From a virus (lineage: Duplodnaviria > Caudoviricetes): a stretch of DNA of 38,936 nt. Within the stretch, counting starts at the first letter, position 1, and each line of letters opens with the position of its first letter. The notes under the pieces were generated by a model. That model did not search any database. It was not told where the DNA came from and was given only the letters and a program-made list of their open reading frames with translations. The DNA lies in IMG/VR virus record IMGVR_UViG_3300001589_000046, positions 1 to 38,936 of that record; one strand, written 5' to 3'. Both the position numbers and the translations under genes were made by a program. Below are positions 15,064 through 33,827 of the stretch, piece after piece.

Positions 15064-15119
15064 TTTCTTATGTTATTTAATATTATTTTATTATAAATAT
15101 TAAAAACCTTTTCAAAAAA

Positions 15120-15374
15120 CTATTTTACTAAAGTAATTTCTCCAGTTTCTAGGTTAATGTTTCCATCACCATATTTTTTCTGTAATTCTTTAGCCGTTTT
15201 ATTAGATTCTTCTTGCAAATCCGCTAGTTTATCAAGAATACTATTTCGTTGTCCTTCTAAAATTGCTCTTTGAATATCTACAGAACCTAAATTAAGGGTT
15301 ATTCCTTTATTTTTTTCTTGATATCCTTTAAGTTTTTCAAGTTCCTCTTTTGATAATTTGATTATTTCACTCAT
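15120..15374 (-). CDS. Small coiled-coil hypothetical protein (possible fibre/tail chaperone)
   Basis: 84 aa with heptad pattern, ends KYGDGNINLETGEI; has its own TATTTATA motif at 15387-15394. Confidence 0.7.
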   Translation of the reverse strand: MSEIIKLSKEELEKLKGYQEKNKGITLNLGSVDIQRAILEGQRNSILDKLADLQEESNKTAKELQKKYGDGNINLETGEITLVK

Positions 15375-15398: not shown

Positions 15399-16328
15399 TT
15401 AAACTTTAAAAAAATTATAGTAAGTTAAAATTTTACTTAATTCAGATTTACTTACTATTGTTTCATAGCTAGAAAATTCATTTTGTATAGAATCTTCTGC
15501 TATATTTTTATAATGCATATAAAATACATCATTTTCTTTACTATAAAATGTTCTTGGAGCCTCTTCTTTTGATATCATTATTTCATGTATTTTTTCTGAT
15601 ATTCTAGGCTTACCTATTTTGTACTTTAGTCCAAATTTCTTATTATATATTTCAAATAAATCTTTTACTTTAAAGGATTTTAAATTGGGTATTATATTAA
15701 ATCCACTAACTTTTAATCCCTCTTCTATTAAATCCATTGCGTCTTTAATATTAATCATAAAACGTGTCATTTCTTCAGAATATAAAGTAAGTTTATAATT
15801 TTTATTTATAGCATCCCAAATTAAAGGAATAATACTACCCGTTGAATTTAAAACATTACCATAAATAGCAGATGATAACCTTACATTTGATTTTTCAGCA
15901 TTTACTATAAAGGATTCACCCGCTATAAATTTCATAGAACCATATAAAGTTGTTGCCGAACGAGATTTATCTGATGATATAAAGCATGCTGATTTAAAAT
16001 TATTTTCTTCTGCTGCTCTTCTTGAATTAATAGACCCATTAATTAATACTTTAACTCCTTCTTCTACATTTTGATCTACAGCCTCTATTTGTTTTAATGA
16101 AGCAGCAAAAATACCAATAGTATGCCCTTTAGAAGACCTTTTTAATAAATCAAAATTACGAACATCTCCTATAACACAGTTAATATTTGGAAATCTTTTT
16201 TTAAGGTAATAATGTTTAGCTTCATCTCTAGAATATACAGTTATTTCATTATTATTATAATAACGAGCTACTAAATTAGAACCTAAATAACCAGCACCAC
16301 CAGTTATAAATATTTTTTCTCCATTCAT
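15399..16328 (-). CDS. UDP-GlcNAc 4,6-dehydratase-like SDR enzyme (PseB/FlaA1/CapD; Polysacc_synt_2 family)
   Basis: ITGGAGYLG, YSRDEAK, GDVR, AASLKQI, ISSDK...LYGSMK, YGNVLNSTGS, MTRF, EKIHE. Confidence 0.88.
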   Translation of the reverse strand: MNGEKIFITGGAGYLGSNLVARYYNNNEITVYSRDEAKHYYLKKRFPNINCVIGDVRNFDLLKRSSKGHTIGIFAASLKQIEAVDQNVEEGVKVLINGSINSRRAAEENNFKSACFISSDKSRSATTLYGSMKFIAGESFIVNAEKSNVRLSSAIYGNVLNSTGSIIPLIWDAINKNYKLTLYSEEMTRFMINIKDAMDLIEEGLKVSGFNIIPNLKSFKVKDLFEIYNKKFGLKYKIGKPRISEKIHEIMISKEEAPRTFYSKENDVFYMHYKNIAEDSIQNEFSSYETIVSKSELSKILTYYNFFKV

Positions 16329-17509
16329 GGGTTAATAATTTTTAATTCTGGGAAGGGAATAATATAAGGAATATTTAAATGTTTAGTTTTTTCTATTATC
16401 ATATCAGAAAAATTCCAAGCAAAAATTAAAATATAGTCCGCTTCACCTATTTTAGATGGGGGCAATATACGAATTTTCCCATTGGAAGTCAACCTATTAT
16501 ATCTTTCTGGTGATTCATCTATGATATAGTCGATATAAATTTCATCTAAATTTAAAGTACCTACAACTACATTAGCCCTACCAGAAGCACCATAACCTAT
16601 TATTTTTTTATCTTTATTATTATCTAAAAATGTTTTTAAATTAGATAATGCTTTTTCAATTGATAAAGAAAAGTTACTTAAATCCTTATATTCTTTTTCA
16701 CTTTCTATTAACTCTTCTACTATACTATTAACCTTAACATTTAAATCTTTAGTTGCAATTACTCTAATTGACCCTGAATGTATTGGTACCCTTTCAACAT
16801 CGATTATTTTAAGATTATGTTTAGAAAGTAAAGTTTTTAAACTCGTAATAGTATAATAATATAAATGTTCATGGTACATAAAATCAAACTGAAATTTATC
16901 AACTAAATCAACTAAATATTGTACTTCAATTATAAACTTACCATCCTTTTTTAAAGTTTGTTCAACTCCTTTAACAACTGAGTTAATATCTGTTATATGA
17001 GCAAAAGTATTACTTGCTAAAACATAATCAAATTTATTTTCCCACCTATTATCTTCAACAAATTTACTATTAAAGAAATCATTTTCAATATTTAATCCCT
17101 TTTTTCTACCTAATTCTACAATATTAGTAGCAGGATCAATACCTATGGTATTATGTATCCCTCTATATTTTAATGCATCTAGTAAAGGACCATCATTACA
17201 ACCAAATTCTAACACATTATCAATAGGTTTTACACCTTCTTTACTAACTAACCAATCAGCATATGAATTAAAATGTTTTTGCATGCCAACTGATGAAATG
17301 TATCTATAATCTTTAAACAATACTTTAGGTTCAATTAAAGTATCAGTTTGAACTAACCCACATTTTTTACATTTTATTATTTTTAAAGGAAAATATTCTA
17401 TATTTTGATTTTCTTTAGGAAAACTACCAGCTAATGGTATTTTACCAAAATCATATATTATATCAAATTTTCTTCCACTACACGAGGCACAACTTTTTCT
17501 ATTTTTCAT
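16325..17509 (-). CDS. NDP-hexose C-methyltransferase (TylC3/TcaB9-like; Zn-binding + SAM + C-terminal domains)
   Basis: CxxC (CASC) and CKKCGLVQ, EFGCNDG, GIDPA, NTFAHI, YHEHLYYY, HSGSIR, GYGASGRA, IFAWNF, IIPFP. Confidence 0.9.
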   Translation of the reverse strand: MKNRKSCASCSGRKFDIIYDFGKIPLAGSFPKENQNIEYFPLKIIKCKKCGLVQTDTLIEPKVLFKDYRYISSVGMQKHFNSYADWLVSKEGVKPIDNVLEFGCNDGPLLDALKYRGIHNTIGIDPATNIVELGRKKGLNIENDFFNSKFVEDNRWENKFDYVLASNTFAHITDINSVVKGVEQTLKKDGKFIIEVQYLVDLVDKFQFDFMYHEHLYYYTITSLKTLLSKHNLKIIDVERVPIHSGSIRVIATKDLNVKVNSIVEELIESEKEYKDLSNFSLSIEKALSNLKTFLDNNKDKKIIGYGASGRANVVVGTLNLDEIYIDYIIDESPERYNRLTSNGKIRILPPSKIGEADYILIFAWNFSDMIIEKTKHLNIPYIIPFPELKIINP

Positions 17510-18530
17510 CTAAATAATTTATAAAGGAGTAATTAGCTGATTTATATTCTTCTAACAAGTTTAAGTACTCATCTTTATATTCGATTCCTAATTTTTCTAT
17601 TTTAGGTAGATCTAAAATAATACTTTCACTTTCTTTTAACTTATATGTTTTATTATTTACTTTAATATTTAATTTTACTTTAACATCATAAATAAATAAT
17701 CTAGGTACCCAAGAATTTGATTTTAATTTTTTAAATGTATTGTCATTTTGTATAAATAACTTAAAATCTTCAGTATTACTTTTATTAAAAAGAGTAATAT
17801 CTTCAAATAACATTAAATCCTTAATATTATCAGGGTGTATTACATAATCAAAAACAGATATTAAATGTTTAAAATAATGTTCAGCATCTGTAAATTTATT
17901 ACCTTCAATATGAGGATGGGTATCTTTCATATAAAATTGTTTATCAAATAAAGATATTAATTTTTCTAAATGTTTTCTATCAAAAATATTTAACATAAAA
18001 CTAGGAAATCTATATCCTACTTCATTAAGATTATCTTCAACTCTTGATGTTAAAATAGGTATTGGGTTTTTTAAATCACCAATTATATTTTTAGTTAATT
18101 CTATATCATAATTTATAAAACTAAAATAATCATATTTAAATGAACTATCATATGTAGCCCATTTTCTCCCTTGAGTAGGTTCTTCTTCATATTTTTGAAG
18201 AGGTAAAGAAAAATTAGATGCTATAAAAATTTGATTAAAAGCTGTCCACCCATAATCATCAAGAACATTTTGTATTTTAATAGGTCTATTTTTGTGAGTA
18301 AAAGTTTTCCAAAAAGCTATGCCTCTATAAGGATAATTTAAAATTGGATTACTTTTATCAAAAATAGTATACTCTACTTTATTTTGTATTTCAATTGATA
18401 AAGGTAAGTGAGACACAACTAAAATGTCAAAACCATGACTTTTAATTTTGTTGATATTTTTATGTAATAGTTGTTCTTTTTTTTTACTATTACAATAACA
18501 AGTGATTATTACTAGATTATTGGTCGGCAT
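17499..18530 (-). CDS. Putative GT-A-like glycosyltransferase / glycan-modifying protein (paralog of 18517-19545)
   Basis: Shared N-terminus IITCYCN..KK...SH.P...SNPI and a NYD motif after a hydrophobic strand; embedded in the sugar operon. Confidence 0.5.
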   Translation of the reverse strand: MPTNNLVIITCYCNSKKKEQLLHKNINKIKSHGFDILVVSHLPLSIEIQNKVEYTIFDKSNPILNYPYRGIAFWKTFTHKNRPIKIQNVLDDYGWTAFNQIFIASNFSLPLQKYEEEPTQGRKWATYDSSFKYDYFSFINYDIELTKNIIGDLKNPIPILTSRVEDNLNEVGYRFPSFMLNIFDRKHLEKLISLFDKQFYMKDTHPHIEGNKFTDAEHYFKHLISVFDYVIHPDNIKDLMLFEDITLFNKSNTEDFKLFIQNDNTFKKLKSNSWVPRLFIYDVKVKLNIKVNNKTYKLKESESIILDLPKIEKLGIEYKDEYLNLLEEYKSANYSFINYLDEK

Positions 18531-19545
18531 AAGCTATTTCTATTGCTGAGTTGGCACTCAATTTAATTAATTCTTCTGGTATTTCCCAATCATTTATGAA
18601 AATTTTTAATCTTAAAGAAGGTTTATTTAATTCATCATATAATATAGGCATATAAATTAATTGATTATCTAATTTTTTATAAACAAAAGATTTATATACT
18701 AATTTATCATTAATAAATATTTTTACATCTAAATCTTCTAATATATCCCAAAAAAATAAAATTACTTTATCCGTTCCTCTTACTTCAGGGTCATTATCGA
18801 ACCATATTTTTTCTTGTCCTATAAACCATTTAAATTTATCTGTATTGTATTTAGCCCAAACATCCCCTTCCATTACAATGCTAGTTTTTATATTAGGTTC
18901 ATTTGGATTTTCTCCTTCCCATTTTTTTCTGGGGATTATTAAACTATTAATAGAATTAAATTTTTTAAATAAATAATTTTCAACTATAATTTCAGTTTTA
19001 ACATAATCAGTATAACTAATTGATTCTATATTTTCTATATATGGTTTTATTTTTAAAGCAAACCATGCCATATACATACTAGTATCATCATTTCCATATT
19101 TTAATATTATATTATCATATTTATTAAGATTTTTATTAAAATCATTAAACATTTTATCAGTAACTTCAAGATCATAATTTAAAACAATAGCTTCCTCATA
19201 TCCCATTCTACTAGCAAATAACAAACCTCTTTTAAATTGTTGTGCTGCTGCATAACCATAATCAACTGATAATGTATTTAATTTAAAGGGGATTGGATTA
19301 GATCTAAATTTATTTAATTTTTTCCAATTTATCATTGATTTATCCTTAACATTAGATATAGGGTTACTATAATCATATATTGAATAATCTACTAATAAGT
19401 GTATATCTTCTTCAATTGGATAGTGTGAAAATAAAATAATATCAATATTATATTTTTTAATATTAATAATAGTATTTTTTAATGCTTCTTTTTTTTCAGA
19501 AGTATTACAATAGGCAGTTACTAAAAAACAACGTTTATTTATCAT
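18517..19545 (-). CDS. Putative GT-A-like glycosyltransferase / glycan-modifying protein (paralog of 17499-18530)
   Basis: LVTAYCN..KK...SHYP...SNPI, DYG, LNYDLEV; overlaps both neighbours. Confidence 0.5.
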   Translation of the reverse strand: MINKRCFLVTAYCNTSEKKEALKNTIINIKKYNIDIILFSHYPIEEDIHLLVDYSIYDYSNPISNVKDKSMINWKKLNKFRSNPIPFKLNTLSVDYGYAAAQQFKRGLLFASRMGYEEAIVLNYDLEVTDKMFNDFNKNLNKYDNIILKYGNDDTSMYMAWFALKIKPYIENIESISYTDYVKTEIIVENYLFKKFNSINSLIIPRKKWEGENPNEPNIKTSIVMEGDVWAKYNTDKFKWFIGQEKIWFDNDPEVRGTDKVILFFWDILEDLDVKIFINDKLVYKSFVYKKLDNQLIYMPILYDELNKPSLRLKIFINDWEIPEELIKLSANSAIEIAYADQ

Positions 19546-22500
19546 AACAAGCTATATATTTTGTTGTGTCTTTTTTAGGATCATATTTTTCTATACATTC
19601 ATATTCTATGTAATTAGTATTGTTATTATTTTTAAACCAATTACCATTATTAGTTAAAATATGATTTATAATATCTTTTTCTACTTTATATAAATCTAAT
19701 AATTGTTTTTTTCTATGTAAGATTAAATTATCTAATTTTTTATCTGATTTTCCAAAAACATAAAAATTATCTGTAAAAGATTTGACTGTATCAAATAATA
19801 ATTTATGTTGTGGGTGTCCATATTCCCCAATTGGATTATGAGTTACTATTTTTTCCCACTTATTATCTTTAAAATATCTAGAAAGATTTAAAGTTTGAGT
19901 ATTAGGATAAAGAGTATCTTCATAATCTAAAAGTTCCCACGATCCAATATTTAATTCACCCATTACTTGAGAAAATTCTTTTACTCTAGTTTTATCCTTA
20001 GGATTAGTAATACATACAATTTTATATTCATGACCATAATTTATTAATTCGGCCCCACCAAAAATTAATTCATCATCTGGATGGGATATAATCATTAATT
20101 TTTTTAGAATAGTTTCATTAAAGGCATGGTTTAATACATTAGCATTTTTTTTCTTAACTGATGGGTCTGGTCCATGAAAAAAATAAGGAAGAAGAGATTT
20201 TTCATCGTACATTACATCAAATCCTTCTTTAGTAAGTTTATTTGGTACTTTTATTTCTTCTTTACTACTATAATAATTATCCCAAGTTACAGGTAAATAA
20301 GAATTATTATTATCTCTCCACATTATATAATTAGCTATTCTTTCTTCTGATAAAGCATTATCGTCTACAAAAACTGTTAAGTGGTAATTATTTAGTTCTT
20401 TATGTATATCTAAACATTCATTAAAAAAAGGTAAAGAATTTATATCATAAAAATAAAAACCAGTAGCTATAATTCTATTATTAGGGTTTCTTTCAATATT
20501 TTTAAAGTCACAAATTTCAGTTCCATATCTGCCTTGTAGCTTAATACCATTATAAGACCTCCACTGTCCTATATCTTCATGATAATATCTCATAAATAGA
20601 GGATAATCTCTTACTAAATTTAAATACTTTAAAGATTTATCTATATGTTCAGTAACAAAAGCATCTCCATCTAACCAAGCATAAAAATCATAATTTTCTT
20701 CTATAGAATCAATACTAGCTAAATATTTAGCATAGTATAAAGAAAAATCTTTATTAATTAAGTCTTGTTCACCACTCCAAACTATATCTTTTTTACGATT
20801 AAAATCTACTCTTTTATTAATAACATTAGGCAAATTAATTTCTGAATCACAATTGAATCCATAAACAATTAATTTATATTTTGAATGTTTTAATAAACTT
20901 TTAGCTAATACCTCTATCATAGATAGGTAATGTTTATCACCTCCAGTAATCCAAATAAAATCATCTTTATTTGTTGGGTTTAAAATTTTATAAGATTTAT
21001 TTAATACTTGATTTACTGTGATTGATTTTTGGCATATATGTTGTTGATCAGTTCCTTTTTTTATTGGACACCAATCCCAATCTCCAGCATCAAAAACCGA
21101 TTCTGGTTTTGTCCAGCAACCATTACAAACATTAAAATTTTGAACTCTAGTTATATTATTTGTAAATTCATGTTCTGGTGTTGAAAACCCATTAAGCATT
21201 AATGTATGTTTATTTAATGCCCAATTAATCCAAGATAAACCTGATCCTAATCCTATAAATAATTCTGCATGGTATAGGTAATTAAATAATTCATCCCAAG
21301 GTAAATTATTTTTGCTTATAATATTAGGCCCATTAAATCCTTTTAAACTTAAACTTATTACTTTATATCCTTTAACCTTAAATTTAGTAGCTAATTCTTT
21401 CCACCTATCATGGGGCCATTCTTTACAACCAGAAGTTGCTTGGGGCCCGATACAAATATATTTTTGTTTTATAGGTCTTTTTTTAGGTTTAAAATAAACA
21501 CCATAATTAATTTCTTTATAAGGAAGACCTAAAATATCTGTTGCTGCCTGAATTAAAGGTATTGTATTAACTTGATTTGGATGATCTTTACTATTTTTAA
21601 AATCACCACTTTCACTTCTAAACCAACCTATTTTATATTGGACATAAGATTTACATCCTTTATTTGGTTTTATAAAAGTTAAATTTTTATATTCTTCCTG
21701 TTTTTCAAACCAACTATTATGAAATGTTGATATTATTACTTTACAATTATGTTTCTTTTGAAATTCAACTGCTTGTGGAGCCCAAGCTAATGTATCACCT
21801 AGAGAATTTGAGTCAAATGATATTTTTACAGTTTTATCTTTTAAATTAAAAGTATGTGCTACTTCACCATTAATTTTTATTACCCAAGGAATATAATATG
21901 TTTTATTACATTGAGTCCACATATTATTTTCTATATTTGAAGAATGTATTACTTCATTATTTTCTCCATTTATAAATTCAATAAAATATTTTTGATTTTT
22001 AGAACCTACAATTTCTACTTTAGGGCCTGAATTAAATGTTATTTTTATTTCGTTAGGTTGGATATTATTATATAGATATTTAATTTCTTTATTAGCTATT
22101 TTTACAGCATTTTCCCAAGTAAATTTATTCCTAATTTGTTCGGATTCTATTAATGCTTTCTTTTTATGTTTACCATAATTTTTATAAGCATCTCTCATTA
22201 CTTTTTTTAAGTCTTCATAATCAGGTTGATAAAATTCCCCAGGTAAATCTGATTGGGAATATGTTGAATATTCTCCACCTAAAGCTGGGATTGTTCCTTT
22301 TATTTTAACGGGTAGTCCCTTTCCTTTAGCAAATTCAAGTTGAGCACTACAATTAGAATATATAGAAGGAGTTCCACAAGCCATAGCTTCTATTAACGGT
22401 AAGTTCCATCCTTCAGACCTGGCACAAGATAAAAATACATGGCCTTTTTGTAAATATTTTATATACTCTTCTCTTGTAGGAAAATGTTTTATTTTTAATC

Positions 22501-23257
22501 TAGGGTCAACTAATTTATAATGTTTTAATCTTTCTTCAGTTGTTTCAAATTTATCTTTAGCAAATACATTATCAATAGATAATACTAAATCAATAGGTTC
22601 ATCTTTATTAAATTCTTCTAAAAATGATTTTATTATTTCTTTTGTTGATTTTCTATAATCCCACCTACCAAATAAAATAAATTTAAATCTATCATCATCA
22701 TATTCAGGTAAAGTAGATTTTTCATTAGGGTAAAAAGTATTACTATCAACAGCTTCAGGTACTACTTTTACTTTATCTTTATCCATACCCTGTTCTATAG
22801 TACATTCTCTTTGCCATTTAGATGCTACCCAAACTTGGTCATATTCTTTTAAACTATTAAAAAATTGTTCTGGTAATCTAGTAGTTTCCCAAACTGTATA
22901 TCCTATTTTTGGGCCATTATAATTTTGGTAAAAAAAGTGATGATTACATTCAGCTAAAACTATATTAAGATCATGGTTAAAATTATTTGGATAATTAGTA
23001 TATAAATCTTTATCTACTAAAAATTGTTCCTTACCAAATAAAGCTTGTGAAACTAAAAGTTTTTTATCAAGATTAGTTAAATAATCTTCCTCATTAAAAG
23101 GTTCTAAGTTATAACCATTCCAATAAGTAGGTACTGTAAAGTTCCTTACTTTAATTTCAAAGGATTTAGATAATTCTCTAAAAAAATCTCGTGTATGGTT
23201 ATTGTAACCTGTATGACCTATATAACAACTATGTGCATATATTTTGGGTTTTCCCAT
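19535..23257 (-). CDS. Four-domain glycosylation enzyme: GT4 + Aah/TibC-like O-heptosyltransferase + GT-A-like + PIG-L/LmbE-like deacetylase
   Basis: GT4: TGY, VWET, GRWDYRKS, RSEGWNLPLIEAMACG. Heptosyltransferase-like: SLGDTLAW, FIGLGSGLSWINWA, CNGCW...WCP...C. GT-A-like: WITGGD, WLDGDAFV. PIG-L-like: SHPDDELIFGG, THNPIGEYGHPQH. Confidence 0.85.
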   Translation of the reverse strand: MGKPKIYAHSCYIGHTGYNNHTRDFFRELSKSFEIKVRNFTVPTYWNGYNLEPFNEEDYLTNLDKKLLVSQALFGKEQFLVDKDLYTNYPNNFNHDLNIVLAECNHHFFYQNYNGPKIGYTVWETTRLPEQFFNSLKEYDQVWVASKWQRECTIEQGMDKDKVKVVPEAVDSNTFYPNEKSTLPEYDDDRFKFILFGRWDYRKSTKEIIKSFLEEFNKDEPIDLVLSIDNVFAKDKFETTEERLKHYKLVDPRLKIKHFPTREEYIKYLQKGHVFLSCARSEGWNLPLIEAMACGTPSIYSNCSAQLEFAKGKGLPVKIKGTIPALGGEYSTYSQSDLPGEFYQPDYEDLKKVMRDAYKNYGKHKKKALIESEQIRNKFTWENAVKIANKEIKYLYNNIQPNEIKITFNSGPKVEIVGSKNQKYFIEFINGENNEVIHSSNIENNMWTQCNKTYYIPWVIKINGEVAHTFNLKDKTVKISFDSNSLGDTLAWAPQAVEFQKKHNCKVIISTFHNSWFEKQEEYKNLTFIKPNKGCKSYVQYKIGWFRSESGDFKNSKDHPNQVNTIPLIQAATDILGLPYKEINYGVYFKPKKRPIKQKYICIGPQATSGCKEWPHDRWKELATKFKVKGYKVISLSLKGFNGPNIISKNNLPWDELFNYLYHAELFIGLGSGLSWINWALNKHTLMLNGFSTPEHEFTNNITRVQNFNVCNGCWTKPESVFDAGDWDWCPIKKGTDQQHICQKSITVNQVLNKSYKILNPTNKDDFIWITGGDKHYLSMIEVLAKSLLKHSKYKLIVYGFNCDSEINLPNVINKRVDFNRKKDIVWSGEQDLINKDFSLYYAKYLASIDSIEENYDFYAWLDGDAFVTEHIDKSLKYLNLVRDYPLFMRYYHEDIGQWRSYNGIKLQGRYGTEICDFKNIERNPNNRIIATGFYFYDINSLPFFNECLDIHKELNNYHLTVFVDDNALSEERIANYIMWRDNNNSYLPVTWDNYYSSKEEIKVPNKLTKEGFDVMYDEKSLLPYFFHGPDPSVKKKNANVLNHAFNETILKKLMIISHPDDELIFGGAELINYGHEYKIVCITNPKDKTRVKEFSQVMGELNIGSWELLDYEDTLYPNTQTLNLSRYFKDNKWEKIVTHNPIGEYGHPQHKLLFDTVKSFTDNFYVFGKSDKKLDNLILHRKKQLLDLYKVEKDIINHILTNNGNWFKNNNNTNYIEYECIEKYDPKKDTTKYIACYDK

Positions 23258-23281
23258 ATTGTTTATAACTTATTTTATTTA

Positions 23282-23313
23282 CTAATATACAATAAAAATT
23301 TAAACTATCCCAA
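23282..23313 (-). promoter_or_regulatory. Bacteroidota-like promoter (TTG ... TGTATATTAG) for the glycosylation operon
   Basis: Minus strand TTGGGATAGTTTAAATTTTTATTGTATATTAG, about 25 nt upstream of ATG 23257; same layout as 12651-12684. Confidence 0.5.
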
Positions 23314-23330
23314 TTATTTATTATTTTTTA

Positions 23331-24065
23331 CTATACACCAACTACCGTAGATATATTTCCTGTTGCTACATCAACAACCTCACCAATATTAGCACTACTT
23401 ACATCAACAATTTCATTACCATAACCCGGAGCTACAGCATCAAAAGACATAAAAGGAACAAAACCACTAGATGGAGTATTAAAATTTAGATAATATCTAT
23501 AATATACATCATCTCCTTGATCAGTATCAGTAGCATCATTTGGATATTGTACAATTGCTATTTTTAATTCTCCTGTCGACGATGCTGCTGCAGTAGCGGT
23601 AGAGTTTAAATCTAAAGTAGCAGATGAATTTGCATCTGTCCATTGTTCAACTGTACCCGAATCAGGAGAATAATTTTCAGTAAAATCAATGTCATCAAAA
23701 AATTCTGAATTAGAATATTGTGAAAAGGATGGACCACTTCCCATTCCATTAAATTCGAATATGGTTGCACCTAAACCAGTACCTAATCCTGAAACAGCTG
23801 TAGAAGTAGTTGATCTATAATTAAATTTTAAATTTGTTATTGTATATCCAACGTAACTACTAAAATCAAATACTGCAAAAAATCTATAAAATCTATAATT
23901 TGAGTTTCCTTTTCCTGAGTCTCTAAAAAACTGTATTGATTGTAAGTTAGATGAAGTTGAAGAATCATTAAAACTATTTGAATCAGATTCTCTTGCTGTT
24001 GTAAAAGAATTTGATGCTAGTGTTCCAACGGCTCTTGAATATCGTACGGCTGTAAGATTTGGCAT
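23331..24065 (-). CDS. Fibre-associated protein, putative beta-sandwich tip/adhesin with a short C-terminal repeat
   Basis: 244 aa, starts 3 nt after the fibre stop; RFFAVFDFSSY...ITNLKF pattern; C-terminal (I..VVDV/VVGV) x3. Confidence 0.6.
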   Translation of the reverse strand: MPNLTAVRYSRAVGTLASNSFTTARESDSNSFNDSSTSSNLQSIQFFRDSGKGNSNYRFYRFFAVFDFSSYVGYTITNLKFNYRSTTSTAVSGLGTGLGATIFEFNGMGSGPSFSQYSNSEFFDDIDFTENYSPDSGTVEQWTDANSSATLDLNSTATAAASSTGELKIAIVQYPNDATDTDQGDDVYYRYYLNFNTPSSGFVPFMSFDAVAPGYGNEIVDVSSANIGEVVDVATGNISTVVGV

Positions 24066-24068
24066 AAT

Positions 24069-27000
24069 TTAAGCTATTACTATATAAGTTGGATCTGGGT
24101 TAAACCAAATTGTGTTTGAATCAACTGCATACCCCACAACTCTTACTACATTACCTGTACTACTTGGAGCTGTATTTGACATGTTTCCTGTTCCAGCACT
24201 AGCACTTAAATAAAGTGGTGCTCCAACAGTAAACCCATGTGATGATTGTTTAACAAATCCTATTAATACAATACCACTGGATGTAGCTGAAGAATTGCTG
24301 GCATTATATCCTAATAATCCTTTAGATGTTGATTCTGTGTTAGCTCCTGTTTTAGCCCAATCTCCGCCAGAGGTCCAATAAACAACTTTTGTGGTTGTTA
24401 CACTTGCTGATCCTATTTTAGTAATAATACCAGACAGTGATCCTAATGAGGTTAAAGAACCATCTAATTCAATTGCCGAATGATTATTAAGTGTCAGCAA
24501 ATTCCCACTAAGTCCTTGGGCATTTACTGTAATAAACTGCGACACGGTTAAACTTGCTCCACTACCTCCATATACTACAACTCCATTAGATGTACTACCT
24601 GTTATTGTTGCTGTACCTGAAGTACCTGAAGAACCACTTGTTCCAGAAGAACCACTAGTACCTGAACTACCACTTGAACCTGGTGAACCATCTCCACCAC
24701 TTACACCTGATGAACCACTTGAACCATTATTACCACTTATACCTGAACTACCACTTGAACCCGGTGCACCATCTCCACCACTTACACCTGATGAGCCACT
24801 TGAACCATTTGCACCTGACACACCTGATGAACCACTTGAACCTGGTGAACCATCTCCACCACTTACACCTGATGAACCACTTGAACCATCTGAACCACTT
24901 ATACCTGAACTACCACTTGAACCATCTGAACCACTTATACCTGATGAACCACTTGAACCATCTGAACCACTTACGCCTGAGCTACCACTTGTTCCAGAAG
25001 AACCTGATGAGCCACTATTACCAGAAGAACCACTTGAACCATCTGTACCACTTATACCTGAACTACCACTTGTTCCTGATGAACCTGAAGTTCCTGATGA
25101 ACCCGAAGTTCCTGATGATCCACTTGAACCATCTGAACCACTTATACCTGAACTACCACTTGAACCATCTGAACCACTTATACCTGAACTACCACTTGAG
25201 CCTGAATCACCAGAAGTACCTGAAGATCCACTTGAGCCTGAAGTTCCTGAAGAACCTGAAGAACCACTTGTTCCTGAAGAACCACTTGTTCCTGAACTAC
25301 CACTTGAACCATCTGCTCCATCATCACCACTTGTACCTGATGAACCTGAGCTACCACTTGTTCCAGAAGAACCTGATGAGCCACTTGTTCCCGAAGATCC
25401 ACTTGAACCACTATTACCAGATGTTCCTGAAGTTCCAGAAGAACCACTTGAACCTCCTGCTCCATCTATACCTGAAGTTCCTGAGCTACCACTTGAACCT
25501 GAAGTACCAGATGAACCTGAAGATCCACTTGTTCCTGAAGAACCACTTGTTCCTGAACTACCACTTGTACCAGATGTACCACTTGAACCAGAAGAACCTG
25601 CTGCACCATCTATACCACTTGTACCTGATGATCCGCTTGATCCAGAAGTTCCTGATGAACCACTTGAACCACTAGTTCCTGATGAACCACTTGTTCCTGA
25701 AGAGCCACTTGAACCTCCTGCTCCTTGTTCACCTGAAGTACCTGAAGTACCACTTGAACCTGAAGAACCACTTGTTCCTGATGAACCTGAAGAGCCACTA
25801 GTACCTGAACTACCACTTGTACCAGAATCACCTGTTACAACAAATGAACAAAGTACATCTTCTCCGTTTGTGAATGGAGATGCAGCTGAAGAAGCTTCAG
25901 GTATAACAGTTAATGTCCACCATGCCCCATTATCAGCTAATTCATCAATAGCAAATAAAATAAATTGAGTTGTATCAAACTTATTTGATATTCTTATGTG
26001 ACCTTTTATAGCTGAGGTCGAACTATCTATTGTTTCTAAAAATGATTCTAAACTATTACCATTATCATCAGTTTGACTAATATAAACAGCAGTTGCTGTA
26101 TTTTGACCTTGTGCTGATGATTTATTTAGTTTTACATCACCAGATCCTGGATCGGATGTAGCTGTATTTGTATCAAAAGTATAATCAAATGTTGCACCCC
26201 CAAATGAACCATCTTGTCCTGATGTACCAGATGAACCTGAAGATCCGCTTGTACCAGATGAACCACTTGTACCTGATGAACCTGATGAGCCACTTGTTCC
26301 TGATGAGCCTGAAGTTCCTGAAGAGCCACTTGAACCGTCTGCTCCATCATCACCACTTGTACCTGATGAACCTGATGAGCCACTTGTTCCTGAAGAACCA
26401 CTTGAACCAGAATCACCACTTGTTCCTGAAGTTCCAGAAGAACCACTTGAACCGCTTGTACCTGAAGAACCACTTGAACCATCTACACCAGAAGTTCCGC
26501 TTGTACCTGATGAACCTGAGGATCCGCTTGTACCTGATGATCCGCTTGAACCACTATCACCGGATGTTCCTGAAGTTCCAGAAGAACCACTTGAACCTGC
26601 TGCTCCATCTATACCACTTGTTCCTGAACTTCCACTTGAACCAGAAGTACCAGATGAACCTGAAGATCCGCTTGTACCAGATGAACCTGAAGATCCGCTT
26701 GTACCTGATGATCCGCTTGAACCATCTACACCAGAAGTTCCACTTGTTCCTGAACTTCCGCTTGAACCAGCTGCACCATCTATTCCTGAAGTTCCAGATG
26801 AACCTGAAGAACCGCTTGTTCCTGAAGAACCGCTTGAACCGTCTGCTCCATCATCACCACTTGTACCTGATGATCCGCTTGAACCATCTACACCAGAAGT
26901 TCCTGATGAACCTGAACTACCACTTGTTCCTGAAGAACCGCTTGTTCCTGAAGAACCTGAACTACCACTTGTTCCTGAAGAACCGCTTGAACCATCTGCT

Positions 27001-30000
27001 CCATCATCACCTGAAGTACCACTTGTACCTGAGCTTCCGCTTGTACCATCTATCCCACTTGTTCCTGATGATCCTGAAGAGCCACTTGTTCCTGAAGAAC
27101 CACTTGAGCCACTATCACCTGATGTTCCTGAGGTACCAGATGAACCACTTGTACCATCTATACCACTTGTACCAGATGATCCACTTGAGCCTGAAGTTCC
27201 TGATGAACCTGAACTACCACTTGTTCCTGATGAACCACTTGTTCCTGAAGAGCCACTTGAACCGTCTGCTCCATCATCACCTGAAGTACCACTTGTACCT
27301 GAAGAGCCACTTGTACCATCTATTCCACTTGTACCTGAAGTTCCTGAAGAACCAGAAGAACCACTTGTTCCTGATGAACCACTTGAGCCACTATCACCTG
27401 ATGTTCCCGAAGTACCACTTGTACCTGAACTACCGCTTGAGCCTGCTGCTCCATCTATTCCTGAAGTTCCTGAAGAACCTGAAGAACCACTTGTTCCTGA
27501 AGAGCCACTTGTTCCTGAAGAACCTGATGAACCACTATCTCCTGTTACAACAAAGGATGCTACAATATCTTCACCATCTGTTAATGCATTACCACCTTGT
27601 ACTTCACTTGCAACTGTTAAGGTCCAATAATCACCTTGATCTACAAGATTATTAATAGCAAAAACAATAAAATCACTTGCATCATCTTTATCAAATAATC
27701 TTACATGACCTTTTGGTATTGAATTTGAAGCCTCTACAGTTTGAAGGAAAGATTCAATGCTATTTCCATCATCATCATCTTGACTTATAGATAATACTGT
27801 TGCAGAAGGTTGAGTAGAATTATTTAATCTAATATTACCTGTTCCTGGATTTTCACTTGTATTAGTATCTGTTTTAAAAGTATAATCAAACGAAGCACCA
27901 CCAAATGAACCATCTTGTCCTGAAGACCCACTTGTACCTGAACTACCACTTGATCCTGATGTTCCTGAACTTCCACTCGAACCATCTGCACCATCTACAC
28001 CTGAAGTTCCTGATGAACCACTTGTACCACTTGTTCCTGATGACCCACTTGAACCTGAAGTTCCACTTGAACCTGATGTACCACTTGAACCAGAAGTTCC
28101 ATCTATACCACTTGTTCCTGAAGATCCTGATGTTCCATCTATTCCTGAAGTACCCGATGATCCACTTGAACCTGAAGTACCAGACGAACCTGAAGATCCA
28201 CTTGTTCCTGAAGAACCACTTGAACCTGAGTCTCCACTTGTTCCAGATGAACCTGAAGAACCATCATCACCTGAAGTACCACTTGTACCTGATGATCCAC
28301 TTGAACCTGAATCACCACTTGTTCCACTTGTTCCTGAAGAACCACTAGAACCTGAAGTTCCAGAAGAACCACTTGAACCATCTACACCCGAAGTTCCACT
28401 TGTTCCTGATGAACCACTTGTACCATCTATTCCACTTGTACCTGATGAACCTGAAGTTCCATCTATACCAGATGTACCAGATGAACCACTTGAGCCTGCT
28501 GCTCCATCAATACCACTTGTTCCTGATGAACCTGAAGAACCGCTTGTTCCTGAAGAACCGCTTGAACCGTCTACACCAGAAGTTCCACTTGTTCCTGATG
28601 AACCAGAAGAACCTGCTGCACCATCTATTCCTGAAGTTCCACTAGAACCAGATGAACCACTAGTTCCTGAACTACCGCTTGAACCATCTGCACCATCTAT
28701 ACCTGAAGTACCTGATGAACCACTAGTACCATCTATACCTGAAGTACCTGAAGAACCACTTGTACCATCTATACCTGAAGTACCTGAAGATCCGCTTGAA
28801 CCATCTGTTCCATCATCACCTGAAGTTCCAGAAGAACCACTTGAGCCACTTGTTCCAGATGAACCACTTGAGCCAGAATCACCACTTGTTCCAGAACTTC
28901 CACTTGAACCATCGGCTCCATCATCACCTGAAGTTCCAGAAGAACCACTTGATCCTGCTGCTCCGTCTATACCTGAAGTACCTGATGAACCACTTGTACC
29001 ATCTATACCACTTGTTCCTGAAGACCCACTTGACCCTGCTGCTCCATCTATACCACTTGTACCTGAAGAGCCACTTGAACCAGAATCACCACTTGTTCCT
29101 GATGAACCTGAGGAACCGCTTGTTCCTGAAGAACCGCTTGAACCGTCTGCTCCATCATCACCACTTGTACCTGATGAACCACTTGTTCCAGATGAACCAC
29201 TAGAACCTGAAGTTCCACTTGAACCCGATGTACCACTTGTTCCTGATGAACCAGAAGAACCAGAATCACCTGTTACAACAAATGAACAAAGTACATCTTC
29301 TCCATTTGTGAAAGGTGAAGTTGCTGAACTTGCTTCAGGTGTAACTGCTAATGTCCACCATGCTCCATTATCTGTTAAATTTGTAATTGCCCAAAGAATA
29401 AATTGAGTTGTATCAAATTTATTTGATATTCTTATGTGACCATTTACAGCACCTGTTGAAGCTTTTACTGTTTCTAAAAATGCTTCTATACTATTACCAG
29501 CATCATCTTCTTGACTTATATAAACAGCAGTTGCTGTATTTTGATCCGAATTATTTACTTTAACATCTCCACTACCTGGATCTGAAGTTGTTGTATCTAT
29601 ATCAAAAGTATAATCAAATGTTGCACCTCCAAATGAACCATCTTGTCCTGATGTACCACTAGATCCGCTTGTTCCAGATGAACCACTTGATCCATCTGTA
29701 CCACTTGTACCTGAAGATCCGCTTGTACCATCTATACCACTTGTACCTGAACTACCACTTGAGCCTGAATCACCAGAAGTACCTGAAGATCCACTTGAAC
29801 CACTAGTACCAGAACTCCCACTTGAACCATCTACACCAGAAGTTCCACTTGTTCCTGATGAGCCACTTGAACCAGCTGCACCATCTATTCCTGAAGTTCC
29901 TGATGAACCTGAAGTTCCATCTATACCTGATGTACCAGAACTTCCACTTGAACCTGATGCACCCTCATCTCCACTAGTACCTGAGCTTCCACTTGAACCT

Positions 30001-32303
30001 GATGTACCTGAAGACCCTGAAGAACCACTTGTTCCTGAAGAACCACTTGTTCCAGAAGAACCAGAAGAACCATCTGCACCATCATCACCTGAAGTTCCTG
30101 AAGAGCCACTAGACCCTGCTGCTCCATCTATACCAGAAGTACCGCTTGAACCAGAAGTTCCATCTATACCACTTGTACCAGATGAACCAGAAGTTCCGTC
30201 TATACCACTTGTACCAGAAGTTCCACTTGAACCTGAAGAGCCACTAGTACCTGAACTACCACTTGAGCCTGAATCACCAGAAGTACCTGAAGATCCACTT
30301 GAACCATCATTTCCATCTACTCCTGAAGTTCCTGAAGAACCTGAAGAGCCACTTGTTCCTGAACTTCCACTTGTGCCTGATGATCCACTTGAACCATCTA
30401 TACCTGATGTTCCAGAACTTCCACTTGAACCTGAAGTTCCTGAAGAACCACTAGTTCCTGAAGAGCCACTTGAACCTCCTGCTCCATCTGTACCACTTGT
30501 TCCCGATGATCCACTTGTACCATCTATTCCACTAGTTCCAGAGCTACCACTTGAGCCTGCTGCTCCATCTATACCAGAAGTTCCAGATGAACCTGAAGAA
30601 CCACTTGTTCCAGAACTTCCACTTGAACCATCATCTCCGCTGGTACCCGAAGTACCACTTGAACCAGAAGAACCATCTGCACCATCTATACCAGAAGTAC
30701 CAGAAGAGCCACTTGTACCGTCTATACCACTTGTCCCTGAAGAACCACTTGAGCCTGCTGCTCCATCTATACCACTTGTTCCTGAAGAACCTGAGCTACC
30801 ACTTGTTCCAGAAGAACCACTAGAACCTGAATCTCCACTCGTACCTGAAGTACCTGAAGAACCACTAGTTCCATCTATACCACTTGTTCCTGATGAACCA
30901 CTTGTACCGTCTATTCCACTTGTTCCTGAAGATCCTGAAGTTCCATCTATACCTGAAGTTCCACTTGAACCGGAACTACCACTTGTTCCAGATGAACCAC
31001 TTGAACCACTATCACCTGATGTTCCTGATGATCCGCTTGAACCATCTACACCTGAAGTACCAGAAGAGCCACTTGTACCATCTATACCTGATGTTCCACT
31101 TGAACCAGAAGTTCCGTCTATACCTGAAGTACCTGAAGATCCACTTGAACCAGAATCACCTGTTACAACAAAAGAACAAATTACATCTTCTCCATCAGTA
31201 AATGCACTTCCACCTGAAGCTTCATTACTTACTGCTAATGTCCACCAATCCCCATTATCTGTTAAATCTGTAATTGCAAATAAAACAAAATCATTTGTAT
31301 TAAATTTATCTGATATTCTTATGTGACCATTTACGGCACCTGTTGAAGCTTTTACTGTTTCTAAGAATGCTTCTATACTGTTACCAGCATCATCTGTTTG
31401 ACTAATGTATACCGCTGTTGCAGAAGGCTGAGTAGAATTATTTAATTTTACTTTTCCTGAACCAGGATCTGATGTATCAGTATCTGTTTCAAAAGTATAA
31501 TCAAACGAAGCACCACCAAATGAACCGTCTTGTCCTGAAGTACCAGAAGTACCTGAAGAACCACTTGTACCATCTATACCAGAAGTGCCTGAACTGCCAC
31601 TTGAACCGGATGTGCCACTTGAACCAGAACTACCGCTTGTACCAGAAGAGCCACTTGAACCTGATGTACCACTAGAACCACTTGTTCCTGATGATCCACT
31701 TGAACCATCCACACCACTTGTTCCTGAAGAGCCTGAAGTTCCATCTATACCTGAAGTTCCACTTGAACCACTTGATCCCGAAGTTCCACTTGAACCTGAA
31801 GACCCATCTGCACCATCATCACCAGAAGTACCTGAAGTACCACTTGAACCTGAAGATCCACTTGTTCCTGATGAACCTGAAGACCCGCTTGTACCTGAAC
31901 TACCAGAAGTACCATCAATACCACTTGTTCCAGAAGAACCTGATGAACCTTCTATACCAGAAGTTCCAGAAGAACCACTAGTTCCTGAAGAGCCACTTGA
32001 ACCACCGCCACCATCAGAACCAGAAGTACCTGAAGTACCACTTGAACCTGAAGAACCACTAGTTCCTGAAGAACCTGATGATCCGCCTGCACCATCTATA
32101 CCAGAAGTTCCGGATGTACCTGATGATCCACTTGAGCCTGAACTACCTGAATCGCCAGATGTTCCAGAAGTACCTGAAGATCCTGAAGAACCACTTGTTC
32201 CAGAGGACCCTGAGCTTCCATCTGAACCAGCACTTTCATCTAATACATTATAAGCGCCAACTTTTAAAGCATCTACAAATCTTACGTTATTCTGACTAGC
32301 CAT
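24069..32303 (-). CDS. Giant collagen-like (Gly-X-X) Ser/Thr-rich virion fibre protein with four repeated globular domains and a C-terminal domain
   Basis: 2744-aa uninterrupted ORF directly after the neck/terminator genes; Gly at every third residue in five long tracts (GSS, GTS, GID, GDS, GAD). Confidence 0.88.
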   Translation of the reverse strand: MASQNNVRFVDALKVGAYNVLDESAGSDGSSGSSGTSGSSGSSGTSGTSGDSGSSGSSGSSGTSGTSGIDGAGGSSGSSGTSGSSGSSGTSGTSGSDGGGGSSGSSGTSGSSGTSGIEGSSGSSGTSGIDGTSGSSGTSGSSGSSGTSGSSGSSGTSGTSGDDGADGSSGSSGTSGSSGSSGTSGIDGTSGSSGTSGVDGSSGSSGTSGSSGTSGSSGSSGTSGSSGSSGTSGSSGSSGTSGIDGTSGSSGTSGTSGQDGSFGGASFDYTFETDTDTSDPGSGKVKLNNSTQPSATAVYISQTDDAGNSIEAFLETVKASTGAVNGHIRISDKFNTNDFVLFAITDLTDNGDWWTLAVSNEASGGSAFTDGEDVICSFVVTGDSGSSGSSGTSGIDGTSGSSGTSGIDGTSGSSGTSGVDGSSGSSGTSGDSGSSGSSGTSGSSGSSGTSGIDGTSGSSGTSGIDGTSGSSGTSGIDGTSGSSGTSGTSGDSGSSGSSGTSGSSGSSGTSGIDGAAGSSGSSGTSGIDGTSGSSGTSGIDGADGSSGSSGTSGTSGDDGSSGSSGTSGSSGSSGTSGIDGAAGSSGSSGTSGIDGTSGSSGTSGTDGAGGSSGSSGTSGSSGTSGSSGSSGTSGIDGSSGSSGTSGSSGTSGSSGSSGTSGVDGNDGSSGSSGTSGDSGSSGSSGTSGSSGSSGTSGTSGIDGTSGSSGTSGIDGTSGSSGTSGIDGAAGSSGSSGTSGDDGADGSSGSSGTSGSSGTSGSSGSSGTSGSSGSSGTSGDEGASGSSGSSGTSGIDGTSGSSGTSGIDGAAGSSGSSGTSGTSGVDGSSGSSGTSGSSGSSGTSGDSGSSGSSGTSGIDGTSGSSGTSGTDGSSGSSGTSGSSGTSGQDGSFGGATFDYTFDIDTTTSDPGSGDVKVNNSDQNTATAVYISQEDDAGNSIEAFLETVKASTGAVNGHIRISNKFDTTQFILWAITNLTDNGAWWTLAVTPEASSATSPFTNGEDVLCSFVVTGDSGSSGSSGTSGTSGSSGTSGSSGSSGTSGSSGTSGDDGADGSSGSSGTSGSSGSSGTSGDSGSSGSSGTSGIDGAAGSSGSSGTSGIDGTSGSSGTSGIDGAAGSSGSSGTSGDDGADGSSGSSGTSGDSGSSGSSGTSGSSGSSGTSGDDGTDGSSGSSGTSGIDGTSGSSGTSGIDGTSGSSGTSGIDGADGSSGSSGTSGSSGSSGTSGIDGAAGSSGSSGTSGTSGVDGSSGSSGTSGSSGSSGTSGIDGAAGSSGSSGTSGIDGTSGSSGTSGIDGTSGSSGTSGTSGVDGSSGSSGTSGSSGSSGTSGTSGDSGSSGSSGTSGTSGDDGSSGSSGTSGDSGSSGSSGTSGSSGSSGTSGSSGSSGTSGIDGTSGSSGTSGIDGTSGSSGTSGSSGTSGSSGSSGTSGTSGSSGTSGVDGADGSSGSSGTSGSSGSSGTSGSSGQDGSFGGASFDYTFKTDTNTSENPGTGNIRLNNSTQPSATVLSISQDDDDGNSIESFLQTVEASNSIPKGHVRLFDKDDASDFIVFAINNLVDQGDYWTLTVASEVQGGNALTDGEDIVASFVVTGDSGSSGSSGTSGSSGTSGSSGSSGTSGIDGAAGSSGSSGTSGTSGTSGDSGSSGSSGTSGSSGSSGTSGTSGIDGTSGSSGTSGTSGDDGADGSSGSSGTSGSSGTSGSSGSSGTSGSSGSSGTSGIDGTSGSSGTSGTSGDSGSSGSSGTSGSSGSSGTSGIDGTSGSSGTSGTSGDDGADGSSGSSGTSGSSGSSGTSGSSGTSGSSGSSGTSGVDGSSGSSGTSGDDGADGSSGSSGTSGSSGSSGTSGIDGAAGSSGSSGTSGTSGVDGSSGSSGTSGSSGSSGTSGSSGSSGTSGSSGSSGTSGIDGAAGSSGSSGTSGTSGDSGSSGSSGTSGSSGSSGTSGTSGVDGSSGSSGTSGSSGSSGTSGTSGDSGSSGSSGTSGSSGSSGTSGDDGADGSSGSSGTSGSSGTSGSSGSSGTSGSSGTSGSSGSSGTSGQDGSFGGATFDYTFDTNTATSDPGSGDVKLNKSSAQGQNTATAVYISQTDDNGNSLESFLETIDSSTSAIKGHIRISNKFDTTQFILFAIDELADNGAWWTLTVIPEASSAASPFTNGEDVLCSFVVTGDSGTSGSSGTSGSSGSSGTSGSSGSSGTSGTSGEQGAGGSSGSSGTSGSSGTSGSSGSSGTSGSSGSSGTSGIDGAAGSSGSSGTSGTSGSSGTSGSSGTSGSSGSSGTSGSSGSSGTSGIDGAGGSSGSSGTSGTSGNSGSSGSSGTSGSSGSSGTSGSSGSSGTSGDDGADGSSGSSGTSGSSGTSGSSGSSGTSGSSGSSGTSGDSGSSGSSGISGSDGSSGSSGISGSDGSSGSSGTSGSSGTSGSSGTSGSSGISGTDGSSGSSGNSGSSGSSGTSGSSGVSGSDGSSGSSGISGSDGSSGSSGISGSDGSSGSSGVSGGDGSPGSSGSSGVSGANGSSGSSGVSGGDGAPGSSGSSGISGNNGSSGSSGVSGGDGSPGSSGSSGTSGSSGTSGSSGTSGTATITGSTSNGVVVYGGSGASLTVSQFITVNAQGLSGNLLTLNNHSAIELDGSLTSLGSLSGIITKIGSASVTTTKVVYWTSGGDWAKTGANTESTSKGLLGYNASNSSATSSGIVLIGFVKQSSHGFTVGAPLYLSASAGTGNMSNTAPSSTGNVVRVVGYAVDSNTIWFNPDPTYIVIA
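24612..32228 (-). repeat. Degenerate 9-bp-period coding repeat (Gly-X-X triplets) in five tracts
   Basis: Plus-strand units such as CCACTTGAA, CCTGAAGTT, CCACTTGTT and CCTGATGAA, with synonymous variation. Confidence 0.95.
25830..31520 (-). repeat. Four copies of an approx. 120-125-aa domain (FGGA[S/T]FDYTF...SFVVTGD) at about 31159-31520, 29268-29633, 27540-27905 and 25830-26204
   Basis: Direct comparison of the translated copies and their DNA. Confidence 0.95.
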
Positions 32304-33826: not shown

Positions 33827-33827
33827 A

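Follow-up and report, generated by a model that had tools for sequence, protein, structure and literature searches.

The 38.9-kb virus record IMGVR_UViG_3300001589_000046 (positions 1 to 38,936; this whole stretch is referred to here as the window) carries T4-like myophage head, neck, tail and baseplate genes on the minus strand. Within one same-strand run of these structural genes we find a gene for a giant Ser/Thr collagen-like protein of 2744 amino acids (aa; 24069..32303), one partner gene (23331..24065) and then a cassette of five serially overlapping sugar-enzyme genes (15399..23257), the first of which encodes a glycosyltransferase (GT) domain of the Aah/TibC type known from E. coli adhesin modification. 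Fiber, partner and enzyme genes all lie on the minus strand at the coordinates given by an initial annotation of this DNA. Across phages, the enzyme and Ser/Thr collagens occur together whether one counts from the enzyme to the fiber, from the fiber to the enzyme or within the lineage of the window, a statistical linkage that the initial annotation had proposed as a check. The pairing is real and widespread and would be a variant of virion and adhesin glycosylation. We hold with a probability of about 0.7 that the five-gene cassette O-glycosylates the phage's own predicted fiber and that the sugars stabilize a proline-free, lysine-free helix.

A Ser/Thr collagen-like protein among virion genes

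The size and composition first described for the collagen-like protein hold up. It contains 690 uninterrupted Gly-X-Y triplets (2070 residues) in five blocks (residues 26-265, 382-894, 1012-1470, 1588-2037 and 2158-2565), which are separated by four spacers and followed by a C-terminal domain of 179 aa. The dominant triplets are GSS (310) and GTS (220), and Ser or Thr fills 80% of the X and Y positions, amounting to 1110 Ser/Thr in the repeats. The X position holds 323 Ser and 225 Thr, whereas the Y position is Ser in 562 of 690 triplets and never Thr. With no Lys or Arg, 128 Asp or Glu and only 3 Pro, the repeats do not have the usual collagen stabilizers (Pro/Hyp and Lys-Asp/Glu salt bridges). 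Matches of the protein to Pfam Collagen (PF01391) and to PHROG tail fibers arise from the repeat. Collagen rises 0.29 nm per residue, at which the repeats would reach about 600 nm if fully extended. Because the longest exact DNA repeat within the gene is 68 nucleotides (nt) and contigs from two sequencing runs of other studies, neither flagged as a possible source of the record, bridge positions 22646-24698 (transferase start, partner gene and fiber end) with zero differences, an assembly artefact is unlikely; the exact fiber length rests on IMG/VR contigs L081 and L004, which possibly share a source with the window. Long reverse-strand open reading frames (ORFs) across the gene were rejected as shadows of the repeat.

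As first annotated, the block sits between neck and tail-sheath genes. Upstream are the head-tail adaptor (397 aa, PHROG 211), a 176-aa gene and a 329-aa gene (together 32307..35021, minus strand), and downstream are a conserved 84-aa gene and the tail sheath (13285..15374, minus strand), followed by the tail tube, as judged from family scans and the gene order of relatives. The 176-aa and 329-aa genes had no family match in Pfam and PHROG scans, and the latter is presumed from its position to be the tail terminator. The 84-aa gene (15120-15374), also without a family match, lies ahead of the sheath gene in almost every relative, and the variable slot ends with it.

The first 25 aa of the collagen-like protein (32229..32303) form a motif that recurs at 34 of 83 loci whatever the fiber type, in each case in the gene next in line behind the 329-aa gene, and this motif may serve in virion docking. 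The four globular spacers of about 117 aa (copy 1, residues 266-381, at 31161..31508; copies 2-4 at 29271-29621, 27543-27893 and 25833-26192) share 61-78% identity among themselves and are 35% identical (E = 1e-6) to a protein annotated as a putative tail fiber of Pelagibacter phage HTVC010P. An alignment-profile search of the spacer against the PDB gave no clear match (nothing under E 0.04), and a spacer trimer prediction returned a score of 0.00, which is no answer and evidence neither way. Given the slot among virion genes, the spacer likeness to the HTVC010P fiber and the shared N-terminal motif, the 2744-aa protein is probably a virion fiber.

The C-terminal non-collagen domain (residues 2566-2744; 24069..24608), found in only some relatives, is likely the fiber tip. 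The 244-aa partner gene starts 3 nt after the fiber gene and ends 73 nt before the cassette; it had no family match, and none of its 28 homologs carries a function name. It accompanies fibers with this tip type and is also present in contig G014, which has no TibC domain. The partner goes with the fiber tip rather than with the enzymes and is likely a tip partner or chaperone.

An Aah/TibC-type enzyme at the head of the cassette

The 1240-aa product of the first cassette gene (19535..23257) was resolved by profile and PDB searches into four domains. The N-terminal domain (22073..23257) is GT4-type with a GT-B fold (PF00534 above cut-off; PHROG 2170) and has an E-X7-E motif at residues 282-290. 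The second (residues 401-755; 20993..22057) belongs to the Aah/TibC (BAHT) family, in agreement with the initial assignment: it scores 229.6 bits on TIGR04414 (cut-off 200; model positions 9-371 of 374) and aligns over its whole length with TibC (4RAP, E = 3e-42), while scoring under 27 bits on lipopolysaccharide (LPS) heptosyltransferase models. The key residues of TibC are the base Asp110, the donor-binding Thr226, Lys230 and Trp305, of which the Thr and the Lys bind phosphate, an Arg286 that selects adenine and a four-Cys iron finger (PMC4358343). In the phage domain the base corresponds to Asp488 (Asp in 71 of 71 sequences), the donor-binding residues to Thr608, Lys612 and Trp676 (kept in 69, 71 and 71 of 71) and the iron finger to Cys711, Cys714, Cys730 and Cys742 (each 71 of 71). 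Pro300 of TibC is not kept, and the equivalent of Arg286 is Leu657, with Arg in 5 of 71 sequences at a column that directly follows a gap in the TibC alignment. From its sequence, we class the domain as a BAHT-family enzyme and do not assign it as an ADP-heptose transferase, since the adenine-selecting Arg286 is lost; a heptose donor is therefore doubtful. The autotransporter family had zero matches among the 26 window proteins scanned.

The third domain (residues 765-1048; 20114..20965) has a D-x-D motif invariant in 19 sequences and is likely a GT-A domain of GT8-like type, a lead that comes from an Atlas cluster with PF01501 on 16% of its members (score 0.97) and a weak PDB match (E = 0.89). 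A single-sequence fold of this domain was discarded (predicted local distance difference test, pLDDT, 37). The fourth (residues 1054-1159; 19781..20098) is a PIG-L-like de-N-acetylase domain (PF02585, 36.4 bits; cut-off 28.2).

The five enzyme genes overlap in series by 11, 14, 11 and 4 nt, as the tight operon first noted would have it. The second encodes a 342-aa protein (18517..19545, minus strand) whose AlphaFold2 model (pLDDT 85) predicts a GT-A fold with a C-terminal beta domain. Every top Foldseek match of this model has a GT-A or nucleoside diphosphate (NDP)-sugar fold, including 3CGX (E = 1.2e-6), BoGT6a (4AYL, E = 2e-6) and glycogenins, at TM scores by target of at most 0.58. In the family that it forms with the next protein, NYD (in the 342-aa protein, where DxD is usual) and DYG motifs are conserved, and BoGT6a, a top match of the model, is metal-independent. 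This next protein (343 aa; 17499..18530, minus strand) is a paralog at 26% identity with a WavE lead (score 0.90) and, by paralogy, is likely a second GT-A transferase. Alignment-profile PDB searches with the third domain of the 1240-aa enzyme and with the 342/343-aa family gave nothing under E 0.04. In all, the cassette has up to five transferase domains.

The remaining two genes point to donor synthesis. The 394-aa protein (16325..17509, minus strand) is a homolog of NDP-sugar 3-C-methyltransferases (PF08421, PF13489 and PF08484 above cut-offs) that aligns over its full length with 4RV9 (E = 3e-57) and TcaB9 (E = 5e-53) and has the Zn-binding N-domain, S-adenosylmethionine (SAM) domain and C-domain of the TcaB9/MtmC type. 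The 309-aa protein (15399..16328, minus strand) is a homolog of UDP-N-acetylglucosamine (UDP-GlcNAc) 4,6-dehydratases with Rossmann, S-D-K and YxxxK motifs, although it falls under the equivalog cut-offs of PseB (154 of 408 bits) and FnlA (102 of 730 bits). Its best structural match, better than 2GN4 and CapE, is 4TQG (E = 4e-38), which is Megavirus Mg534, a UDP-GlcNAc 4,6-dehydratase/5-epimerase described as part of a fibril glycogene cluster (PMC9614988).

These assignments bear on what the cassette modifies. One alternative is that it alters the host surface (LPS or capsule) against rival phages and sits beside fibers in a host-recognition island without acting on them, as one study reads the transferases of pelagimyophage host-recognition islands (PMC7029224); WavE and GT9 are also LPS-linked families. 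The 229.6 bits on the protein-modifying TIGR04414 model argue otherwise, as does the lack of any membrane-like segment in the cassette enzymes (top 19-residue hydropathy 1.26, compared with 2.23 for the tape measure), and this alternative leaves the tie to Ser/Thr over Pro collagens, described below, unexplained; we consider it quite improbable. Another is glycosylation of the phage's DNA bases against restriction enzymes. Phage transferases that modify DNA are known (PMC12619734), a weak GT4-conflict match lies under its cut-off, and about three quarters of the genome lies outside the window. Family scans of the window found no base hydroxylase or hydroxymethylase, and the cassette sits among virion genes and covaries with the fiber, which leaves DNA modification only a very slim chance.

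The enzyme and the fiber occur together across phages

Viral loci with the TibC domain were examined with a flank of 10 kb, and a Ser/Thr collagen was called when at least 10 triplets with at least 50% Ser/Thr lay inside the fetched flank. Such a collagen was found at 49 of 78 loci, in 30 of 43 clusters at 90% identity and in 16 of 24 at 70%, and many of the misses are short contigs. When five misses were searched whole, the repeat was found elsewhere in G190, G191 and G192 and was absent from G193 (16% complete) and G194 (52%). In the reverse direction, we took 50 distinct contigs each, longest first, from 80 listed of 158 Ser/Thr-pattern loci and 80 listed of 129 Gly-Pro-Gln loci. Within this sample of listed loci, TIGR04414 was present in 16 of the 48 Ser/Thr-collagen contigs that were scored and in 1 of 50 Pro-Gln-collagen contigs (Fisher p = 2.8e-5), and the lone Pro-collagen positive, G052, belongs to both sets and thus also carries a Ser/Thr collagen. 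Among records at least 90% complete the counts are 5 of 7 and 1 of 11 (p = 0.013), and within fetched flanks 11 of 74 and 1 of 80 loci (p = 0.0017). Finally, 159 loci anchored on the capsid gene gave 44 contigs of at least 30 kb, of which 3 have both parts, 2 the fiber only, none the enzyme only and 39 neither (p = 7.6e-4); the two fiber-only contigs are fragments (13% and 18% complete), and the 39 with neither include all seven near-complete genomes. Among cultured relatives, Flavobacterium phage immuto has neither part and Microcystis phage Mel-JY01 has both.

Several points weigh against this linkage. The Pro-collagen control is biased to smaller phages, and the counts ignore kinship. The Ser/Thr repeat occurs without a TibC match in the near-complete G051 and G053 (58 kb) and in G065 (84%), and conversely G194 (154 kb) has the domain and no match to a six-triplet pattern, with a collagen of 45% Ser/Thr adjoining its TibC domain. 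G051 (L168) falls in a giant-virus bin; it has the Gly-Ser/Thr-Ser pattern and lacks TIGR04414.

The GTS/GSS fiber of Mel-JY01 (PP395634.1) appears to continue in frame over the point at which the linear record is cut (L614:15688-18002 and L002:1-3052; about 770 and 1016 codons). The annotation of this region shows short minus-strand ORFs and a tail piece of 177 aa instead. A scan of bacterial and archaeal genomes with a single domain sequence, which reaches close relatives only, returned one phage-like contig from a metagenome-assembled genome (MAG) and one weak match. This contig (L446; JAAEPJ010000383.1), although assigned to a bacterial MAG, belongs to a phage of the window lineage with fiber, cassette, sheath and tube in the same gene order.

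Close relatives allow a finer comparison. A quick tree built from the 329-aa gene (71 rows) places the window inside an 18-row clade with support 99. Where the slot holds a Ser/Thr fiber, the enzyme was found in 12 of 14 searched contigs, and the two misses end early. Nested in the window clade, L093 and L101 carry a GAT/GIQ collagen with 31% Ser/Thr, and the closed slot of L101 contains a sulfotransferase, a GT2-like gene and an adenylylsulfate (APS)-kinase-like gene with no GT4-TibC. Also nested there, L091 and L092 have a non-collagen fiber, and in L092 no transferase precedes the 84-aa gene, while G014 of the sister clade combines a Thr/Gln collagen with another set of enzymes that does not include TibC. 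The enzyme set thus tracks fiber chemistry.

The slots themselves give a more mixed picture. Among 89 slots that were classed, 26 are closed with neither part, and just 2 were seen closed with both because fiber slots outsize the 10-kb flank; weighing against a self-contained module, 17 are closed with enzymes and no fiber. When 14 enzyme-only contigs were searched whole, the repeat was found in G027 alone, again an unfavorable count, with the other 13 being 9-22% complete. In G027 (119 kb) a GTS/GSS protein is encoded at the opposite end of the contig, some 108 kb away from the enzyme and beyond baseplate-looking genes; G190, G191 and G192 are likewise examples of distant linkage. Given these enzyme-only slots and the distant fiber of G027, the two parts are linked at the genome level and are not always adjacent, and for the enzyme-only clade this linkage rests on one contig (G027). 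The contig ends of G190, G191 and G027 often break inside the Ser/Thr repeat. Because contigs often break in this way, a missing fiber on a short contig is weak evidence. The initial annotation is thus upheld in part: the Aah/TibC assignment and the linkage stand, and the cassette has more transferase domains than had been seen. Its self-contained, co-located module is not supported in that form: 17 closed slots lack the fiber, the fiber of G027 is 108 kb away, and no reductase or aminotransferase to complete the donor sugar is recognizable in the window cassette. The roles first proposed for such a fiber (adhesion, shielding and mimicry) are hypothetical.

Retention of the cassette in the neck-sheath slot when the fiber lies elsewhere would also be expected if it glycosylated virion proteins in general (capsid, sheath and neck), with the fiber as one substrate or a bystander. 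Transferases of mycobacteriophages modify capsid and tail tube (PMC12363180, PMC12619734), and the 397-aa neck protein has a slight [ST]G[ST] excess (p = 0.04, uncorrected), which likewise counts against a fiber-specific role. In sheath and capsid, by comparison, this motif showed no excess in 26 TibC-bearing over 20 TibC-free loci (sheath p = 0.22), and with their composition unshifted we rejected a general Ser/Thr-Gly enrichment of core virion proteins. Since enzyme presence also follows fiber type among close relatives, general virion glycosylation appears improbable.

In 43 loci the stretch between the TibC gene and the 84-aa gene is complete, and there gene order is fixed and length variable. 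The run begins with GT4-TibC, which may stand by itself; otherwise domain 3 and PIG-L (fused or split) come next, and then one or two GT-A paralogs, the C-methyltransferase, the dehydratase and a gene of about 240 aa; the window cassette is among the longest versions. L077, in which the fiber comes after the enzyme, is an exception to this order. GT4 is out of the TibC frame in six loci, two of them cut by a contig end and four with a separate gene of 358-362 aa directly before, which in L144 is GT4 by Pfam. Some relatives add an RmlD-like gene of 236-243 aa (weak Pfam matches). We infer that GT4 and TibC would form a constant priming core on which a variable glycan is built.

Other genes appear in the same slot of relatives. 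Sulfotransferase, APS-kinase-like, HAD and cytidylyltransferase-like genes were seen at L610:682-6782 (G021) and L119:7126-8571, and fibers or glycans in such relatives may also be sulfated. GT25, PhyH, 2-oxoglutarate (2OG)-Fe oxygenase and several methyltransferase genes lie between the fiber and the core cassette at L008:4873-7490, L012:2467-3087 and L164:2594-6795. A 291/292-aa protein with no Pfam match (L008:7916-8794, L089:11131-12006, L164:7165-8040 and L610:2661-3539) is found repeatedly in the slot, whether or not the TibC gene is there, and is absent from the window cassette; its GGLGK start is reminiscent of the GT9 motif.

A proposed route to a glycosylated fiber

We propose that, in the cytoplasm, the GT4 and TibC domains prime serines of the nascent chain with one or more sugars. 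Of the two, TibC is favored as the initiator, with Asp488 as the base; its donor is probably not strictly ADP-heptose, and it would most simply act on the collagen chain before folding. The GT8-like domain and the two GT-A paralogs would then extend the glycan and the PIG-L domain would remove an N-acetyl group. Judged by their homologs, the dehydratase (Mg534-like) and the C-methyltransferase may convert UDP-GlcNAc to a 3-C-methyl-6-deoxy-N-acetylhexosamine (HexNAc) donor, which a reductase encoded by the host or at another site of the phage genome would complete. Three chains would assemble into five helical rods with four globular knuckles between them; docked through the N-terminal motif, this assembly would measure at most about 600 nm when fully extended. 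Gain and loss of downstream genes around the kept core, a variation that is observed at the gene level, would alter the glycan in a serotype-like manner.

Proline and Lys-Asp/Glu salt bridges are named as what stabilizes collagen-like proteins in PMC11923368, in which (Gly-Pro-Thr)10 is reported to turn from coil to triple helix only when its Thr is galactosylated. Because the window fiber lacks both proline and such salt bridges, dense O-glycosylation is a plausible stabilizer. We treat this precedent as an analogy and not a match, since in the model peptide Y is Thr and X is Pro, whereas the phage repeats have Ser at 562 of 690 Y positions and Thr at X only. This difference weighs against our proposal, as does the beta-helix, not collagen, nature of the known TibC substrate.

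The same composition could also describe a glycosylated fiber that is not triple-helical, in which flexible mucin-like or polyproline-II tethers join the folded spacers. Repeats with 128 acidic and no basic residues, nearly no Pro (3), no Lys-Asp salt bridges and Thr never at Y would suit such tethers. A disordered linker, though, would not need Gly at every third residue through 690 triplets without a slip, and in relatives L106 and L127 collagens that do contain Pro occur in this slot with this spacer. We regard non-helical tethers as unlikely, noting that this possibility overlaps with a glycosylated helix and that the odds of the readings do not sum to one.

Returning to the glycosylated helix, a broader and more tentative extension is that large aquatic phages make collagen of a third kind, in which a Gly-Ser/Thr-Ser helix without proline can fold only once a phage-encoded TibC-type enzyme has glycosylated it, and which forms a glycan bottle-brush whisker several hundred nm long. 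Here GT4 and TibC would prime, and swappable genes for extension, deacetylation, methylation and sulfation would set a 'glyco-serotype' that decides binding to host or particle, with a C-methyl-branched amino sugar in the window phage.

Relation to known systems

Streptococcal-type serine-rich repeat adhesins offer a parallel in which a GT4 enzyme (GtfA/GtfB) is encoded beside a very long Ser-rich repeat adhesin and further transferases extend the glycan. The window differs in having no accessory Sec system or cell-wall anchor and in a triplet rather than dipeptide repeat. Closer in the enzyme are the TibC-TibA and Aah-AIDA-I pairs of E. coli (TIGR04414, 4RAP/4RB4; PMC4358343), which share the domain, the active site, the iron finger and a gene beside a Ser-rich repetitive protein. 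Unlike these, the phage enzyme is fused to three more domains and does not keep Arg286 and Pro300, its presumed substrate is a Gly-X-Y chain and not an autotransporter beta-helix, and genes for extension and donor synthesis follow.

Among viruses, the mycobacteriophages Che8, Corndog and Myrna are also tailed phages with their own virion-protein transferases, but the targets described there are capsid and tail tube (Freeman 2023, as cited in PMC12363180 and PMC12619734), whereas here a TibC-type enzyme accompanies a fiber with 1110 Ser/Thr in its repeats and the phage's own sugar-synthesis genes. Megavirinae glycogene clusters (PMC9614988) similarly encode viral donor synthesis (Mg534), are clade-specific and include multi-domain transferases, and Mimivirus L230 is a viral enzyme that glycosylates viral collagen, as we propose for the window. 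These are viruses of eukaryotes, however, and L230 acts on hydroxylysine while the window repeats have no Lys; counterparts of Mg535 and Mg536, as named there, are absent from the window cassette.

For the fiber, Riftia cuticle collagen and BclA are hydroxyproline-poor collagens in which O-linked sugar is the proposed stabilizer (as cited in PMC11923368). The prophage proteins EPclA and EPclB likewise are phage Gly-X-Y fibers with globular domains between collagen blocks, but these are described as Pro-rich, charged and unglycosylated when made in E. coli (PMC3368898). Among the listings and abstract openings returned by our literature search, no publication connected enzymes of the TibC type with phages or with Ser/Thr collagen fibers.

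We estimate that about 3500 stretches in IMG/VR match the Ser/Thr repeat pattern, and one third of the sampled contigs carry the enzyme. If the proposal is correct, an E. coli adhesin enzyme family gains a second, widespread use in phages, virion glycosylation extends from mycobacteriophage capsids to very long fibers of aquatic phages, and nature provides a test of whether sugar alone stabilizes a proline-free collagen helix. A further benefit would be a soluble O-glycosylation pathway of several steps with which mucin-like or collagen-like materials could be produced in bacteria. As Mel-JY01 is cultured and has both parts, the question is directly testable.

Source and genomic setting

The window covers about one quarter of a genome. 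By capsid protein, its closest cultured relatives are immuto (55%) and Mel-JY01 (49%), and the gene order around the slot is the same in the window and immuto; on the basis of this order and the capsid identity, we file the phage only as an Immutovirus-like marine myophage. A host among the Bacteroidota is a guess extrapolated from immuto. Fourteen sequencing runs, all marine or seawater, contained 50% or more of the words sampled from the transferase gene. RNA runs gave no evidence of expression, as they contained 6-17% of the words or were of doubtful RNA nature, and all were contigs.

A promoter and terminator scan of the window was at chance (83 compared with 74.9 ± 9.1, and 1 compared with 2.2). 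The low GC content of the cassette (0.22-0.26) was rejected as a sign of foreign origin, its third-position GC of 0.10-0.12 being in line with that of its neighbors.

Two further genes lie downstream of the tail tube. A KaiC/RecA-like ATPase gene (11819-12622), present in only some relatives (L005, L013 and L033), is located between the tail tube and baseplate hub genes. A 1522-aa gene (1012-5580) follows the baseplate wedge/hub gene and has a weak amidase match under the cut-off at residues 1070-1155, and its product is a possible tail lysin.

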